Virus record (IMG/VR): IMGVR_UViG_3300000292_000170
DNA length: 5,387 nucleotides
Source: a virus
Taxonomy: Duplodnaviria > Heunggongvirae > Uroviricota > Caudoviricetes
Direction: 5' to 3' (one strand)
Below are positions 1 to 5,387 of this stretch, in pieces (the first letter of the stretch is position 1; every line of letters begins with the position of its first letter). The notes under the pieces were generated by a model. It saw only the letters and a program-made list of their open reading frames with translations. It was not told the DNA's origin and made no database searches. Both the position numbers and the translations under genes were made by a program.

Positions 1-462
1 ATGCTGGGTGATTGTTTCCCTCCTGATTTTAAGGCTAATTTTAGTCGTGAAAGAGGTATATCACCCGGTGATGTATTGTATCTTCATTGTGATTTTACGA
101 CCCCACCTAAAGTAAAATATATGGTGGTTGTTTGCTGTGAACCTCTTTTAGTTCTTCTAATAAATTCAGATATAAATGAATTTATTAAGAGAAACAATGA
201 TCTTATGGCTTGTCAGGTCGAAATTAATAGAGAGGACCATGATTTTCTTAAATGGGACTCATTTGTTAATTGCATTGAGGCTCATGCTGCTTTCGATCTT
301 GAAATTATTAAAGAGAAAATAGCCATCCAATATGGCGACGTGCTAAAAGGTCGCATTACAGATCATTGTATGAGACAAGTTCGATGTGCAGTTGAGATAT
401 CTAAAATCATGGTTAAACGGCATAAAAAACTGATACTCGCTGCTCTTCAACATTATGAATAA
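1..462 (+). CDS. Hypothetical protein, 153 aa, markedly AT-rich orphan ORF convergent with the prophage operon; possible moron/cargo gene
   Basis: Uninterrupted ORF from ATG at 1-3 to TAA at 460-462. Composition is visibly AT-rich compared with the rest of the window (by-eye estimates of about 35% versus about 50% GC), with Lys/Ile/Asn-rich codon usage. No family motif recognised by eye. Followed directly by a hairpin terminator. The start coincides with the window edge, so the true 5' end cannot be verified. Confidence 0.55.
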   Translation: MLGDCFPPDFKANFSRERGISPGDVLYLHCDFTTPPKVKYMVVVCCEPLLVLLINSDINEFIKRNNDLMACQVEINREDHDFLKWDSFVNCIEAHAAFDLEIIKEKIAIQYGDVLKGRITDHCMRQVRCAVEISKIMVKRHKKLILAALQHYE

Positions 463-490
463 ACCCACCTTTGGATGGGTTTATTCATAT
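461..490. terminator. Putative bidirectional rho-independent terminator between convergent genes
   Basis: Inverted repeat aaaccca (461-467) / tgggttt (476-482) around a short loop, followed by T-rich tttattcatattctattt on the plus strand. On the minus strand the same stem is followed by tttattcat. It sits in the 33-bp gap between the stop codons at 460-462 (+) and 496-498 (-). Confidence 0.45.
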
Positions 491-495
491 TCTAT

Positions 496-768
496 TTAAA
501 TGAGCCTTTGTTTATGGGTTCTGACCCTTTCCCACTCAGCACGCCCTTCTTCTCGCCTTTTGTCTATGTATTCCGCAAGATCCTGAATATTGATGCAACG
601 TTTTGCTTTTTGTGATGTGCCGATGCGATATGTTGGAACGGGCAACTTACAAGCGTTTGCTTTTGCTTCTGCCGTGGCTGGACTCATGCCAAAGTACTTT
701 TGGCTAACTGCTGAGAGTTCAATGTTAGGGGTATTGAATTCAGCCATCAGTAAAAACAAGGTGTTCAT
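496..768 (-). CDS. PrtN-family (pyocin-activator-like) small DNA-binding protein, putative excisionase/recombination directionality factor
   Basis: Minus-strand ORF ending at TAA (496-498). The translation contains the KLPVPTYRIG...IQDLAEYID region, which I recognise as characteristic of PrtN/excisionase-like phage proteins (recognition by eye, unverified). The ORF track starts it at GTG 795, which has no Shine-Dalgarno sequence. ATG at 766-768 is preceded by GGAG (ATGGAGAAAATTATG) and is the best-supported start, giving 90 aa. ATG at 778-780 is an alternative. Confidence 0.6.
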   Translation of the reverse strand: MNTLFLLMAEFNTPNIELSAVSQKYFGMSPATAEAKANACKLPVPTYRIGTSQKAKRCINIQDLAEYIDKRREEGRAEWERVRTHKQRLI

Positions 769-804
769 AATTTTCTCCATCAAAACCGGCTGCACCCGGG
801 AAAA

Positions 805-1377
805 TCATAATTCTGTGCTGGTGGCAGGAATTAATTTCTGCCAGATAGCGGAAACATATTTTGCCTGATGACGGGCATCGGCCAGGGCGTTGTGCCGTTC
901 GCCATCGAAAGGCATGTCCATTTTGGGGGCGAATCCGATGGAACGCCCAAGCGTAACGATCGTGCGTACATCGTGGTCATTCCAGTATGCCCACGGGCAG
1001 ATTTGTCCTGCTCGCTCATAAGCTCCACGTAAAATTACGTTGTCGAAGGTGGCCCCGTTACCCCAGACTTTTAAATATTTTGTATTGTCTGCATGCTGAT
1101 TAATGAAATGGCTCAGTTCAGAGAGTGCATCGCTGATCGACAAAGTATCATCAATACAGATTGCAGCTCGTGCTTCAGGGCTCTGTTTCAACCACCACAG
1201 GATGGTATCGCCGTCAGGTGTGGCCCCTTGCTCCATAGCACTTTCCAGGCTGACAACCGTATAGAATTCTTGTCCGATGTCTCCGGTTTCTGGGGTGAAG
1301 AACACCGCGCCAATGGAAACGATTGGTGCATCCTTATTTTTCCCCATCGTCTCAAGGTCGATCATTAAGTTGTTCAT
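805..1377 (-). CDS. DEDDh-family 3'-5' exonuclease (DnaQ-like fold), phage-type
   Basis: 190-aa ORF. N-terminal IDLETMG matches the Exo I D-x-E motif and C-terminal HNALADARH matches the Exo III H-x4-D motif of DEDDh exonucleases. Strong Shine-Dalgarno AGGAGGTG (reverse complement of 1383-1390) sits 5 nt upstream of ATG 1375-1377. The start overlaps the upstream stop as TAATG. Confidence 0.75.
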   Translation of the reverse strand: MNNLMIDLETMGKNKDAPIVSIGAVFFTPETGDIGQEFYTVVSLESAMEQGATPDGDTILWWLKQSPEARAAICIDDTLSISDALSELSHFINQHADNTKYLKVWGNGATFDNVILRGAYERAGQICPWAYWNDHDVRTIVTLGRSIGFAPKMDMPFDGERHNALADARHQAKYVSAIWQKLIPATSTEL

Positions 1378-1688
1378 TACTTCACCTCCTGCGTTTCTTT
1401 GCTGCTGTGAATTCGCCAGTTACCGACGCCTTCCCATTCAAACTGGCGGTTACTAATTCGCGTCCAGCCCCTGCCGAAAAGCAAATCCAGATACCAGTAT
1501 TTTAAAGTTCTGATAATTGCTCTTACAGTTGGTTTGCATCCAGAAGTCTTTGATGCGCAAATAAAGCACCGAGTTATGCTCATGGCCTCTACAAAAGGCC
1601 AGATAAACCAAACCCAGATGCAAAGAGCCACGAACAACATGAGCGCAATGTTAGCCACTAAGCCAGACCAGTGCAGATAATTGCTCAC
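1377..1688 (-). CDS. Small Trp-rich membrane protein (hypothetical), 103 aa
   Basis: GTG start at 1686-1688 preceded by a perfect AAGGAGG (reverse complement of 1695-1701) at 6-nt spacing. One clear hydrophobic segment, LVANIALMLFVALCIWVWFIWPFV, predicts a transmembrane helix. GTGA overlap with the upstream gene's stop and TAATG overlap with the downstream exonuclease start. Confidence 0.6.
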   Translation of the reverse strand: MSNYLHWSGLVANIALMLFVALCIWVWFIWPFVEAMSITRCFICASKTSGCKPTVRAIIRTLKYWYLDLLFGRGWTRISNRQFEWEGVGNWRIHSSKETQEVK

Positions 1689-1924
1689 TGGTTGCCTCCT
1701 TTACGGATCTGCGCTGCGATGCGCGAAAAAAAAGACTCCCGCGTATGACTGTTAAGAGCTGGCGCGAACGCTGCGTTAAGAACGGCAGCATCACAGCCGT
1801 CATCGATATAGAGCGCAATTTTTTTCTCCAGGCGCGCTTTGGCTTCCTGCAACTGCATACCCCGGCACGCACGCGGGATATACTCAGCAATTTGAGCGAT
1901 AGATTTTTCGTTCTGTTTAAACAT
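1685..1924 (-). CDS. Hypothetical phage protein, 79 aa
   Basis: ATG at 1922-1924 preceded by GAGGTGA at about 5-nt spacing. The stop overlaps the next gene's GTG start as GTGA. No family recognised. Confidence 0.55.
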   Translation of the reverse strand: MFKQNEKSIAQIAEYIPRACRGMQLQEAKARLEKKIALYIDDGCDAAVLNAAFAPALNSHTRESFFSRIAAQIRKGGNQ

Positions 1925-2120
1925 GCTTCACCTCGATAGGCTTGATGGTGTCGATCAGTAGTCGGAGGCGCGTATTTTCTGCAAAGTGGCGGCGTCCGGT
2001 TTCTTTGTGGTAAAACTCGTTTTTGCCGACGACCCACATCCGCTCTGTCTGGTGAAGTTTTTTTACCTGCGGGCCGTCTTTGGTGATCACAATGCCGGTA
2101 TGGGTTTTTACGATTGTCAT
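1917..2120 (-). CDS. Hypothetical phage protein, 67 aa
   Basis: ATG at 2118-2120 preceded by GAGGTGGTGG. The start overlaps the PAPS-reductase-like stop as ATGA, and there is an 8-nt overlap with the downstream gene. No family recognised. Confidence 0.55.
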   Translation of the reverse strand: MTIVKTHTGIVITKDGPQVKKLHQTERMWVVGKNEFYHKETGRRHFAENTRLRLLIDTIKPIEVKHV

Positions 2121-2995
2121 GCCACCACCTCTTCGAATTTCAATTCCAATTGATCACCCCAGATTTCACATGACTCTGAACACGAGCCGGTATCGAATCG
2201 CCTGGCTTGCACCATCGCTTGATACAAATTTCTGTAGTCGCTGTCGGCATACATTCTGGCAATCCCGTCAAGGCTCAGATGACCACGGTACATAACGTCT
2301 TTATTTGTCTTTCGGTGACCATCCCGGACGTGTTTACCTGTAACCAGCTCATTAAAAACTCGCATCAGACCAGGTTCGTCTTTACATGCAAGCCCCAGCT
2401 TTTGCGTGGACTTTTTGATGCAGAAAACACAGTTCCCGAGGTGCTCCGGGATTTGCAAATCAAAAGGTTGTTTATGCCACCACCGGATAACATCCGAGTT
2501 ATCAAAATCAGATAGCTCGGCAAGATACCGGACGCCCGATTTCGGTTTCAGCCTACGAGGTTCGTCTGCACGAATACCCAGCCATGTGATGTAATTCCCT
2601 CGTCCGAAATGGTCATCGCAGTATTTTGTGAAGGGGGTGAGTTTTAATCTGTCAGTGCAGAACGCGCCGCCGATGTATGGCGTGCCATATTTTTTTACCA
2701 TGTCCATAAACGGTTTAAGCACCGGCATTCGTGTCTGAATATCCTTTGGTTCCCATTCCGTATAACCATTTGGCTGCCCAAGCTCTGGATTTATATCGAC
2801 CTGCAACACAGTTAGCGGTATGCCCCAGAACTTCACAACCTCCCGAATAAAGCGGTATGTCAGCGGATGTTCGCAACCGGTATCCATAAAGATGTAGCAG
2901 ACGTTATTGCCAGCCTTTCTTTGTTCTTCCATCAGGTGAACAAGATATGCAGATGTTCTCCCGCCAGAAAAACTAACTACATGAGTTATGCACAT
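2117..2995 (-). CDS. Phosphoadenosine-phosphosulfate (PAPS) reductase family protein / PP-loop ATP pyrophosphatase-like, phage-encoded
   Basis: 292-aa ORF with N-terminal PP-loop motif VVSFSGGRTSAYL (SGGxxS), typical of the PAPS-reductase/DndC-like/ATP-sulfurylase superfamily. Cysteine pairs CVFC (residues 189-192) and CSESC (271-275) could ligate a metal or Fe-S centre. The start overlaps the upstream YfdR-like stop by about 10 nt. Confidence 0.8.
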   Translation of the reverse strand: MCITHVVSFSGGRTSAYLVHLMEEQRKAGNNVCYIFMDTGCEHPLTYRFIREVVKFWGIPLTVLQVDINPELGQPNGYTEWEPKDIQTRMPVLKPFMDMVKKYGTPYIGGAFCTDRLKLTPFTKYCDDHFGRGNYITWLGIRADEPRRLKPKSGVRYLAELSDFDNSDVIRWWHKQPFDLQIPEHLGNCVFCIKKSTQKLGLACKDEPGLMRVFNELVTGKHVRDGHRKTNKDVMYRGHLSLDGIARMYADSDYRNLYQAMVQARRFDTGSCSESCEIWGDQLELKFEEVVA

Positions 2996-3522
2996 TTGCG
3001 TAATTCCGATAACTCGTTAAAACGTTCCATAAACATCCCGTAGGCATGGCCTGGTGACAGTGGAATAACTTTGAACATCTCTGTTGCCGGGATGCCTTCC
3101 AGTACAGGCCAGAAAGAGCCATCATCAAGCCCGAGATCGCGGCGTTCGGTTGCCAGCATAATGAGATCGGCATATTTCACTGGCGTGCTCATAACAGGAG
3201 GTAACCCGTATTTCTCACGGATTACGGCGTCTATTTTTTCTTCCATCCGTTTATAGTCAGGAAGAGGTCGTTTCAGTGGCGCGGGGATGTCCTGGCAATA
3301 TGCTTCTGTTGCATCATGCATTAACGCTTCGAAAGCAAACTCCTGCGGTACCAGCTGGCTGCAAAGCACCGCATGTTGGGCGACGCTGTAGAAGTGTGAA
3401 AGATGCCCTGCAAAGCGACAGATATTTGAGAGGGAAACTGCGATATCGTTAATCACGATGTCGTCTTTATTTATCTTGTCATAATAAAAATGCTTCCCGG
3501 AAAAAGTTTTAATAAATGACAT
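2986..3522 (-). CDS. yfdR: HD-domain phosphohydrolase, YfdR-like 5'-deoxynucleotidase
   Basis: HD-domain signature: H in LSHFYSVAQH, HD in EALMHDATEAY, and downstream Asp residues. The ORF track begins at GTG 3549, which has no Shine-Dalgarno sequence. ATG at 3520-3522 is preceded by GGAGAACAAA, giving 178 aa, which equals the length I recall for E. coli CPS-53 YfdR. The symbol is assigned from recalled family, length and gene order, not from a search. Confidence 0.7.
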   Translation of the reverse strand: MSFIKTFSGKHFYYDKINKDDIVINDIAVSLSNICRFAGHLSHFYSVAQHAVLCSQLVPQEFAFEALMHDATEAYCQDIPAPLKRPLPDYKRMEEKIDAVIREKYGLPPVMSTPVKYADLIMLATERRDLGLDDGSFWPVLEGIPATEMFKVIPLSPGHAYGMFMERFNELSELRKCA

Positions 3523-3615
3523 TTTGTTCTCCACGTATATGCGCTGCACCGCGCTGAATTCTGGTAAAAGGAAGCTCTCACCATCCGGTGATTATTGAGT
3601 TAATTACGTTTCCAT

Positions 3616-3637
3616 AAATGCCCCCGCAGGGGCATTT
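3616..3637. other. GC-rich perfect hairpin in the yfdQ-yfdR intergenic region (possible attenuator, processing or binding site)
   Basis: aaatgcccc (3616-3624) / cgca loop / ggggcattt (3629-3637) forms a 9-bp perfect stem. There is no U-tract beyond the stem on either strand, so it is not a classical intrinsic terminator. It lies in the 127-bp gap between the stop at 3650-3652 and the start at 3522. Confidence 0.4.
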
Positions 3638-3649
3638 GCAGTAATGAAA

Positions 3650-4168
3650 TCAGGCGGTGAAAGTACCAATAAAGGTTTCGACTTTGCTGTCTTTGAATTT
3701 CTCAACAAGCAGATCACGAAATTCGTTAGCCATTTCTTCCTGCACCGCTTCCAGCTGAATAATGCGCAGAACCAGTACAGGACGATCGCCAGTGATAATG
3801 CTGAGGCGTAATTTAAACGGACGTTCTTTCAGGCCTTCAAACGGAACGCATTTAAATTCAAATGCCACTGGCATAATATCTTTGGTCTTCGCTTCGACAG
3901 ACTCCATCAGGGAGCGTTTGCCGCTGAAGTCATTGTCTTCAAAATCAGCGGTCTGGTTTGCTTCAATCGTGATTTTACGGACTGCCGCAGCCGCTTTTGT
4001 TGCCTGAATGGCATCACCATTAGCATCAAAGCCCACAAGGTAGTCGGCCCAGTCTTCAATCCATTCTGCCAGTGACTTCTGGGAGTTACGCTCGCCGTTA
4101 ACAGACAACAGAGCAGAGAACGGTGCTGTCTTTTTCAGTTTGAGAGTGGCGGTGTTATCTGCGTGACC
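3650..4168 (-). CDS. yfdQ: DUF2303/YfdQ-like phage protein, C-terminal 172 codons plus stop, truncated upstream by a scaffold gap
   Basis: Continuous reading frame from the N-run boundary at 4168 down to TGA at 3650-3652. The ORF-track start at 4108 is a TTG inside this frame. The codon boundary at 4168 is in frame with the N-terminal fragment at 4654-4959; joined, they give 825 nt, i.e. 274 aa, the length I recall for YfdQ. Symbol from recalled length and gene order only. Confidence 0.6.
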
Positions 4169-4178
4169 NNNNNNNNNN
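4169..4178. other. Run of 10 N: scaffold/assembly gap
   Basis: Exactly 10 ambiguous bases, a fixed-length spacer typical of scaffolders. Confidence 0.9.
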
Positions 4179-4368
4179 GTCTTTGGTCTTCGCTTCGACT
4201 GACTCCATCAGGGAGCGTTTGCCGCTGAAGTCATTATCTTCAAAATCAGCTGTCTGGTTCGCTTCAATTGTGATTTTACGGATCGCCGCAGCCGCTTTGG
4301 TTGCCTGAATGGCGTCACCATTAGCATCAAAGCCCACAAGGTAGTCGGCCCAGTCTTCAATCCATTCT
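4179..4368 (-). repeat. Divergent partial copy (about 95% nt identity) of the yfdQ-like segment 3878-4067, flanked by N-gaps; probable alternative-allele contig
   Basis: Direct alignment at offset 301 shows about 9-10 substitutions in 190 nt. The encoded peptide ([27 protein letters not shown]...) differs from the primary copy by a single V/I change, so the substitutions are almost all synonymous. Confidence 0.8.
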
Positions 4369-4378
4369 NNNNNNNNNN
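4369..4378. other. Run of 10 N: scaffold/assembly gap
   Basis: Exactly 10 ambiguous bases. Confidence 0.9.
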
Positions 4379-4643
4379 TGGTTCATCGATAGTACCCAGG
4401 TTAAGTACACTGACGGCACGCATATTATCGGCGTCGATAAAGCAGCGGGTGCCTTCATCTGCAAGATCTTTAGAATAACGGGTAAAATCATCGATGCTGG
4501 CAGTGGAAAGTGCACCACGGAAACGGAAGCGATTTAAATTAAATTTTTCCAGATCATGAATGCGGAAATTCTCAGGCAATGCCACAGCATCGGCACCAAT
4601 CTTACTGATAATTTCATTAACACCCTGAGCAGAAATAAGGGCA
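4379..4643 (-). repeat. Divergent partial copy (about 95% nt identity) of the yfdQ-like segment 4654-4918, flanked by N-gaps; probable alternative-allele contig
   Basis: Alignment at offset 275 shows about 12 substitutions in 265 nt, all synonymous: the peptide [68 protein letters not shown] is identical in both copies. Confidence 0.8.
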
Positions 4644-4653
4644 NNNNNNNNNN
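4644..4653. other. Run of 10 N: scaffold/assembly gap
   Basis: Exactly 10 ambiguous bases. Confidence 0.9.
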
Positions 4654-4959
4654 AGGCTCATCAATAGTACCCAGGTTAAGCACACTGACGGCACGCATAT
4701 TATCGGCATCGATAAAGCAGCGGGTGCCTTCATCCGCAAGATCTTTAGAATAACGGGTAAAGTCATCGATGCTGGCAGTGGAAAGCGCACCACGGAAACG
4801 GAAGCGATTTAAATTAAATTTTTCCAGATCATGAATGCGGAAATTTTCAGGTAATGCCACTGCGTCGGCACCAATCTTACTGATAATTTCATTAACACCC
4901 TGAGCAGAAATAAGGGCATGAATTTGATTAATTGCGGTTGCGTCTAAGTTCTGAGACAT
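4654..4959 (-). CDS. yfdQ: DUF2303/YfdQ-like phage protein, N-terminal 102 codons, truncated downstream by a scaffold gap
   Basis: ATG at 4957-4959 preceded by GAGGA at about 6-7 nt spacing. The frame runs to the N-gap boundary at 4654, ending on a complete codon (...NLGTIDEP). The ORF-track call 4534..4959 continues through the N-run into the variant copy and is an artefact beyond 4654. Confidence 0.6.
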
Positions 4960-5024
4960 AATAAGTCCTCACTATATAAAGATATTCAGTGATGAGATAA
5001 ATAATCAGTTAATTAAGAACGATA

Positions 5025-5387
5025 TTAATGACCTGCTGCGCGGAGTTTTCCGTCAGGCTCACCGGCAAGAGTCAGTAATTGTCCCTGGTCTTCCTGCAGA
5101 ATAGTCAGGCGACCACCGCGATTGACATACATCGGCGTTTCGGTGGTGTCTTCTTCGGAAATTTTCCCGCGGTTAGTCGGACGAACATATGAGAGTTTGT
5201 GTTTTATTTTCACACGGTTCTCATCAAACGGTTCGATTTCCAGGTTGAGCGAGACCTTACCTTTGGTTTTCGTGTTCATCACACCGGAAGCGACTTCACT
5301 GAGAACTGCGCCGATTTTGGTTTCAAATACGCCGCCGTCCAGCTCCCCGATAAATGCCTGCACATCAGTACTGTGTTCGCTAGCCAT
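5025..5387 (-). CDS. Hypothetical phage early protein, 120 aa (position corresponds to yfdP in a CPS-53-like arrangement)
   Basis: ORF from ATG at 5385-5387 (window edge, so upstream context is unseen) to TAA at 5025-5027. Same strand and operon as the downstream genes. No family motif recognised. Confidence 0.55.
   Translation of the reverse strand: MASEHSTDVQAFIGELDGGVFETKIGAVLSEVASGVMNTKTKGKVSLNLEIEPFDENRVKIKHKLSYVRPTNRGKISEEDTTETPMYVNRGGRLTILQEDQGQLLTLAGEPDGKLRAAGH

Follow-up and report, generated by a model that had tools for sequence, protein, structure and literature searches.

The window analysed here, a stretch of 5,387 nucleotides of phage DNA (IMG/VR record IMGVR_UViG_3300000292_000170), contains the early-left arm of an Escherichia coli temperate prophage, and its first 462 positions hold an AT-rich open reading frame (ORF) for a protein of 153 amino acids. 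Based on gene neighbourhood, homology and structure prediction, we consider it very likely that this gene encodes a PanT toxin of cluster T5 and that it belongs to a two-gene type II toxin–antitoxin (TA) cassette, carried as a moron in the slot between attP and xis of a dusA-integrating temperate phage of the mEp460 / vB_EcoM-720R4 group. Our confidence is higher still for the membership in the PanA-PanT family and for the architecture of the cassette. The pairing of the two genes, the conservation of this pairing, the fold of the protein, its mobile and variable location and its foreign composition were established in this analysis.

The window begins with the second gene of the operon, at its very first base, and the antitoxin gene lies just outside it. 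In E. coli strain 730V1 (locus L001), which is 100% identical and in which base 1 of the window corresponds to L001 12001, a Panacea gene (WP_001547985.1, 'Panacea domain-containing protein' in RefSeq) occupies L001 11414-11995 on the same strand, stopping 5 nt short of the ORF. The product of L001 11414-11992 carries the Panacea domain (PF13274, SocA_Panacea) with an E value of 6.8e-20 and a score of 72.5 bits against a cutoff of 25.7. Some variation was observed in the annotated start of this protein. The RefSeq start at L001 11414 lies 20 codons upstream of the position (L001 11474) that corresponds to the starts of the homologues from Rahnella, the Serratia phage and a metagenome island (MLNVRFD...), and the Idiomarina PanA is also annotated with a longer N terminus. 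A strong AGGAGG lies a short distance before the annotated start, a weak Shine–Dalgarno sequence precedes the internal ATG, and either position may be the true start.

A PanA homologue was found directly upstream and on the same strand in all 25 related loci (24 of them distinct), with a spacing between the two genes that ranges from an overlap of 8 nt to about 42 nt in the relatives. The paired loci span Enterobacterales to Acidobacteriota and include chromosomes of Photorhabdus, Proteus and Idiomarina, metagenome-assembled genomes (MAGs) of Acidobacteriota and of Candidatus Vecturithrix, a P2-like prophage of Rahnella in which the pair lies beside an AbiJ-like gene, integrative islands that also bear a ParE pair, and the isolated Serratia phage vB_SspS_OS31, in which the pair is flanked by the Q antiterminator gene on one side and by methylase and lysis genes on the other. 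The genes that flank the pair thus vary with its setting, be it P2-like prophage, lambdoid phage, integrative island or chromosome. Compared to the E. coli PanA, the partners in the relatives are 56, 51, 44 and 36% identical, and a different PanA from the same prophage slot is 27% identical; judging from these values, the PanA partners diverge in step with the toxins. With respect to the features by which Kurata et al. 2022 recognised PanAT pairs, the E. coli cassette has a Panacea gene as neighbour, the two genes lie on the same strand at most 100 nt apart, and the pair is conserved across loci of several phyla. The Rahnella locus, in Rahnella aceris Y9602 (L004 4471-6688), has its PanA-T5 pair adjoining a gene with an AbiJ_NTD4 domain, between the GPA replication and portal genes, which makes it a cargo island of mixed TA and abortive-infection content within a P2-type prophage.

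Previously, DUF4065 was named 'Panacea' by Kurata et al. 2022, who reported that PanA antitoxins pair, and form complexes, with dozens of unrelated PanT toxins and who predicted 88 toxin clusters (PMC8832971). The E. coli cassette is a further member of one of these already predicted toxin families. Protein P0033, in our search, was 53% identical to the window protein (E 6.3e-50) and falls in the same 90% cluster as WP_054475897.1 (P0208) of Photorhabdus heterorhabditis. The latter is listed in Dataset S1 as a PanT of cluster T5, in the order antitoxin then toxin with a gap of 3 nt, and is marked 'notest'; for T5 as a whole the HHpred entry is EndoA/MazF at 99.5% (PMC8832971). The link to T5 was made through the Photorhabdus homologue, because the accessions of the E. 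coli pair (WP_001547985.1/WP_001547986.1) were not found in the part of the Kurata et al. supplement that was examined, an absence that is no proof. In the literature no experimental test of this pair, which is shared by E. coli and Salmonella, was found. What is said here of PanA-PanT complexes and of the toxicity of one T5 member, that of Chryseobacterium bovis, which was toxic in E. coli, is taken from the published work (PMC8832971). Two related MazF-like PanTs, one from P. moraviensis (T6) and one from B. ruminantium (T25), form validated TA pairs and inhibit translation (PMC8832971).

The 153-aa protein is labelled a hypothetical protein in RefSeq and occurs on no fewer than 1000 contigs of E. 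coli and Salmonella. It has 41 close clusters, all of 148-157 aa, from Enterobacterales, Idiomarina and metagenomes, and a profile search gave 1250 representatives at 50% identity, 633 of them with an E value of 1e-10 or better and nearly all of about 150 aa. The original prediction, made from the sequence of the window, had called the gene an orphan; with this family, and with a Panacea gene 5 nt upstream, the description does not hold. The same prediction stated that the protein had no recognisable family. For the profile libraries this was right, as no significant match was obtained in Pfam, NCBIfam, PADLOC or PHROGs (the best library matches, RRM_2 with E 0.31 and phrog_29007 with E 0.009, were treated as noise), and it fails in that the family is the predicted PanT cluster T5.

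The protein has the SH3-like barrel fold of MazF and CcdB. An AlphaFold2 model based on the alignment of 41 sequences had a mean pLDDT of 88.8 and a pTM of 0.82, with a barrel core at about residues 20-118 followed by two extra C-terminal helices (121-148). With Foldseek, the structure search that the original prediction had proposed, the sole significant match in the PDB was RNA-bound MazF-mt3, and the best matches among viral structures were phage proteins named 'PemK-like protein' and 'Endoribonuclease'. Among 74 diverse members of the family only K39 and N55 are invariant, and K37, S56, G23, F32, Q72, F82, L83, S87 and C91 are conserved in at least 90%. In the model K39 stands immediately before strand beta-2 and N55/S56 at the end of strand beta-3. 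A low-confidence hhalign alignment, a weak hint at the register only, placed N55/S56 opposite T52/T53 of E. coli MazF. Taking R29 and T52 to be the catalytic residues of E. coli MazF, K39 and N55/S56 would, by pattern comparison, occupy the positions of MazF R29 and T52/T53 and may form the active site of the T5 toxin.

Two groups of genomes carry the toxin gene in a damaged form. In five E. coli genomes of O166:H15/AST there is a +1 insertion in an A-run after codon 106, and PanA is still annotated. The A-run corresponds to positions 316-322 of the window (in GAGAAAATAG), and the additional A leads to a product of 112 aa (P0193) that is present on 82 contigs. Similarly, the toxin is frameshifted or truncated in five Photorhabdus species, and of the adjoining PanA matches four have full length, the one in L037 being shorter. 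A toxin that is lost first while the antitoxin is kept fits the expectation for a TA pair, which is not proof.

Several results weigh against the assignment as a MazF-type TA toxin. The only T5 toxin tested, that of C. bovis, was not neutralised by the cognate PanA, and this PanA proved toxic in its own right (PMC8832971). No match of the PF02452 PemK profile to the protein was obtained with Pfam at E values up to 1, the family profile found no match among PDB sequences at E values up to 10, and an hhalign comparison of this profile with four MazF/Kid sequences reached a probability of only 1.7%. At the putative counterparts of the catalytic Arg and Thr of MazF the protein has Lys and Asn/Ser, so that the chemistry could differ. 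No PADLOC model fits PanA or the 153-aa protein. Nor is the promoter-like site of the cassette better than chance, with three such sites found compared to 5.2 in shuffled sequences.

An alternative is a system that does not arrest growth, in which the 153-aa protein, not itself toxic, would bind nucleic acid or act as a regulator, for example as a phage-specific effector on the RNA of an invader only or as a decayed MazF fold, with PanA as its partner or as a sensor. Such a system would agree with the 8 of 25 PanTs tested by Kurata et al. that were not toxic in E. coli, among them two phage-borne T1 PanTs (from an E. coli prophage and a Salmonella phage) and one MazF-like PanT, from Flavobacterium (PMC8832971), which also count against a toxin here, and with the proposal of Ernits et al. 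2023 that stand-alone Panacea neutralises toxins directly and may be mainly a sensor (PMC10440598). We nevertheless judge it improbable, as one T5 member is toxic in E. coli, the residues that resemble an active site are strictly conserved over the 74 diverse sequences, and the repeated inactivation of the toxin with PanA kept is more easily understood if the toxin does harm or is dispensable than if it is harmless.

A toxin with the same TA logic could also be a gyrase poison like CcdB, which when free would trap DNA gyrase and cause double-strand breaks. The shared barrel fold allows for this, but the top Foldseek match is a MazF bound to RNA, and an invariant basic residue and an Asn-Ser pair would stand at the catalytic positions of MazF. 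In CcdB a C-terminal Trp-Gly-Ile motif binds gyrase, and this motif is absent from the protein, whose C terminus instead consists of the two extra helices. As the validated MazF-like PanTs inhibit translation (PMC8832971), we regard a gyrase poison as very unlikely.

That the ORF is a chance or decaying open frame without function in AT-rich att-proximal DNA, as the RefSeq label and the lack of profile-library matches might suggest, is effectively refuted already by the constant length of about 150 aa in the close clusters and remote representatives, the confident structure prediction and the synteny with PanA across phyla. The ORF starts with the ATG at position 1 and ends with the TAA at 460-462, and position 1 is taken as the true start because the N terminus fits the family consensus M..LGD.FP.

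The original prediction of a strongly AT-rich plus-strand ORF in an arm that is otherwise transcribed from the minus strand was borne out, as all other long ORFs of the window are on the minus strand. The GC content is 35.2% in positions 1-495 compared to 47.1% in 496-5387, and at third codon positions (GC3) it is 24% in the ORF compared to 52% in the exonuclease gene. The cassette has a GC content of 35-39%, compared to 49% for the prophage. A hairpin of 14-16 bp at 454-489 has folding energies of -19.5 kcal/mol on the plus strand and -21.5 on the minus strand (z scores of -5.4 and -6.0), and none of 200 shuffles reached the value of either strand. Since the 3' side of the hairpin is U-rich on both strands, a bidirectional terminator is plausible. 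The folding thus supports the insulating terminator that had been proposed, and going by its sequence the hairpin would plausibly act as an intrinsic terminator in both directions and mark the right-hand limit of the cassette. Homology to phages that hold different cargo picks up again at 496-518.

The location of the cassette was also clarified by the sequence beyond the window, where the original prediction had advised to look. Upstream of PanA lie a promoter-like site and a 105-nt remnant of the 5' end of dusA (L001 11169-11273), followed by the normal neighbours zur and a DUF2713 gene. An intact prophage in strain HH107 has, in this order, a complete dusA, a divergent tyrosine integrase (WP_001514812.1) and DinI; then come the genes for tail, head, lysis and early functions, followed by xis, the 153-aa gene and PanA, with the dusA remnant at the end. 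The map of the free phage mEp460 runs from DinI and int through attP, with the phage's own mimic of the dusA 5' end, to two plus-strand cargo ORFs, xis and exo. Alignment of the junctions placed the crossover at about L001 11262-11275, with a common phage arm to about L001 11335. Because attP, between int and the cargo slot, is the point of integration, int lies about 40 kb away in the prophage. The ORF does not stand in place of int, as had been suggested; int follows xis in the phage map and is found beside dusA at the opposite end of the prophage, and its absence from the window is ordinary and fully explained. A replacement of int was therefore ruled out, as were a host housekeeping gene, since the 153-aa gene lies inside the dusA' junction, and a core phage gene, since it is present in 6% of the records that share xis. 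Strain 730V1 has lost int, the far end of its prophage having been rearranged by IS26 and IS5. This int-proximal end (L011 16858-19056) abuts a CP4-like island with cbtA/yeeU, and because neither the integrase nor the restored dusA lies next to it, the prophage can probably no longer leave the chromosome.

Presence of the cassette is variable. Among the 746 E. coli records with a match to the query in its xis part, 46 were found to have it, or 46 of 5426 genomes, always in the chromosome and always at this site. Among the isolated phages in the phage collection, none carries it at the DNA level. The xis-like gene, whose counterpart in mEp460 is annotated as excisionase in agreement with the original prediction, is the conserved right flank of the slot, and other genomes hold other cargo between it and the att arm. 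Strain FDAARGOS_497 has a different Panacea gene (27% identical) followed by unrelated ORFs of 128 and 57 aa without a Pfam match (L014 3238-4439), which would be partner swapping at one locus. Strain M8 has a 179-aa ORF with a YafO-family toxin (PF13957), and RM8082 and phage mEp460 have ORFs of 177 and 57 aa. All this cargo is on the plus strand, convergent with xis. The element AAAGCA..ATTTGCT..ATTGACC is common to the upstream side of three unrelated slot cassettes; at L001 11346-11377, and at the equivalent positions in L014 and L015, it consists of a small palindrome and a -35-like hexamer (AAAGCAnnATTTGCT...ATTGACC). It supplies the -35 of a promoter-like site at L001 11372-11401, and may be a common promoter or operator, or a recombination boundary for cassette exchange.

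With its foreign GC content, its hairpin, a promoter-like site and its variable presence in a slot that takes other cargo, the cassette has the features of a moron. The expectation of a foreign gene at a module boundary, possibly for a toxin or abortive infection, was thus confirmed by composition, by the presence in 46 of 746 records and by the MazF toxin fold, and the slot indeed holds variable cargo, with other TA-like pairs that include a second PanA pair and a YafO pair. The gene was found to be neither a core gene of the phage nor host DNA, either of which would have spoken against this view.

What we infer on the RNase chemistry and its catalytic residues, on the trigger and on the biological role would combine as follows. 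The product of the upstream Panacea gene would be the stand-alone antitoxin PanA, and a promoter on the att-proximal side of the cassette would probably drive both genes, with transcription ending at the hairpin. In the lysogen, PanA would bind PanT and hold it inactive. A trigger, for which infection by another phage or loss of the prophage followed by turnover of the antitoxin are candidates, would then remove, outcompete or switch PanA. The freed PanT with its MazF fold could cleave cellular RNA with a site around K39 and N55/S56, and translation and growth would stop, either as abortive infection or as post-segregational punishment. On the predicted structure, an endoribonuclease is the probable nature of PanT, held with moderate confidence. 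For the main role, anti-phage defence by abortive infection is put forward tentatively, at somewhat less than an even chance, with prophage addiction or selfish maintenance taking the rest. A wider proposal, which we think rather unlikely to hold in full, is that E. coli phages which integrate into dusA have a defence hotspot in their att-proximal slot, where unrelated TA cassettes (two PanA pairs and a YafO pair) are swapped behind a shared promoter or operator, and that the T5 PanAT acts by abortive infection, with Panacea sensing a phage component and releasing a MazF-fold RNase with a Lys/Asn-Ser site.

Features of the window, with positions counted from its first base.
Feature	Position	Strand	Remarks
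panT-like toxin gene, 153 aa, WP_001547986.1	1-462	+	predicted MazF/PemK fold, PanT cluster T5
Codons of putative active-site residues	K37/K39, 109-117; N55/S56, 163-168	+	from invariance in the family and comparison with MazF
Palindromic hairpin	454-489		overlaps the stop codon of panT (460-462); the convergent xis-like gene ends 6 nt away
PrtN-family (PF11112) excisionase-like gene	496-768/795	-	last gene of the early-left operon; Pfam E 3.9e-23; RefSeq CDS of 273 nt
Rv2179c-like 3'-5' exonuclease gene	805-1377	-	
Three small ORFs	between the exonuclease and PAPS-reductase-like genes	-	
PAPS-reductase-like gene	2117-2995	-	
YfdR-like HD hydrolase gene	2986-3549	-	
YfdQ fragments		-	N runs between the fragments
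YfdP	5025-5387	-	

The first 800 bases of the window are 100% identical to several complete E. coli chromosomes, and no complete E. coli genome matched the whole of positions 1-3640 in one piece. In the early operon, an ORF of 103 aa at 1377-1688 on the minus strand has a hydrophobic N-terminal half and is without a Pfam match. For the 292-aa product of the PAPS-reductase-like gene, the match to PAPS reductase is limited to the N-terminal PP-loop part (PF01507, residues 5-72), and a 120-aa 'phage protein' stands in its place in other copies of the prophage. The YfdQ region (3650-4959) contains three N runs, at 4169-4178, 4359-4368 and 4635-4643, and two pairs of direct duplicates that are 95-96% identical (3879-4067/4180-4368 and 4369-4643/4644-4918). 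These duplications look like a scaffolding artefact that joined two prophage variants and not like biology.

With this assignment, a 'hypothetical protein' that is widespread on E. coli and Salmonella contigs becomes a testable toxin, and a large T5 family for which Pfam has no model is seen to be strictly tied to Panacea antitoxins. If validated, the pair would offer a tractable PanAT system native to E. coli for the question left by Ernits et al. 2023 of what the Panacea domain senses, and could show whether the Lys/Asn-Ser variant of the MazF site cleaves RNA. Additionally, the interval from attP to xis in dusA phages is a place to look for exchangeable TA and defence cargo.

Among known systems, the cassette is most directly compared with the PanAT pairs of cluster T5 (PMC8832971; PMC10440598). 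As in these, a Panacea gene (DUF4065/PF13274) lies directly upstream in the order antitoxin then toxin, a few nt apart, the toxin has a length of about 150 aa with a MazF-like fold and without a CDD or Pfam match, a 53%-identical protein (P0033) shares its 90% cluster with a Photorhabdus protein listed as T5, and the cassette is found on prophages and islands. It differs from the experimental record of T5 in that the only pair tested, from C. bovis, was toxic and not neutralised. The att-proximal slot of dusA phages as an exchange site for PanA and other TA cassettes is not described in those papers.

The MazF/PemK/Kid toxins (PF02452; mazEF, pemIK and kis-kid) are likewise encoded by the second gene of a two-gene operon, and the T5 protein may resemble them in having, at the catalytic positions, a basic residue before beta-2 and a hydroxyl/amide pair after beta-3. 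In contrast to these toxins, it falls outside the sequence profile, has Lys and Asn-Ser for Arg and Thr, and carries about 35 extra C-terminal residues that form the two helices at 121-148. Antitoxins of the MazE/PemI type are AbrB-like, whereas the antitoxin here is a globular Panacea protein and not of that type.

Prophage morons and defence hotspots, such as the P2 hotspots and the interval from Q to lysis in lambdoid phages, are also foreign units with a promoter-like site and their own hairpin that are present or absent between otherwise near-identical prophages, and pairs related to the E. coli cassette lie in the interval from GPA to portal of P2 and from Q to lysis in the Serratia phage OS31. 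The slot described here differs in lying between attP and xis of dusA-integrating phages, and its role in defence is inferred. Finally, the elements with dusA-specific integrases (Farrugia et al. 2015, PMC4482086) show the same arrangement, with the prophage in the 5' end of dusA, a remnant of the gene on this side and int next to the restored dusA at the other end, and compared to them this prophage has no unusual feature.
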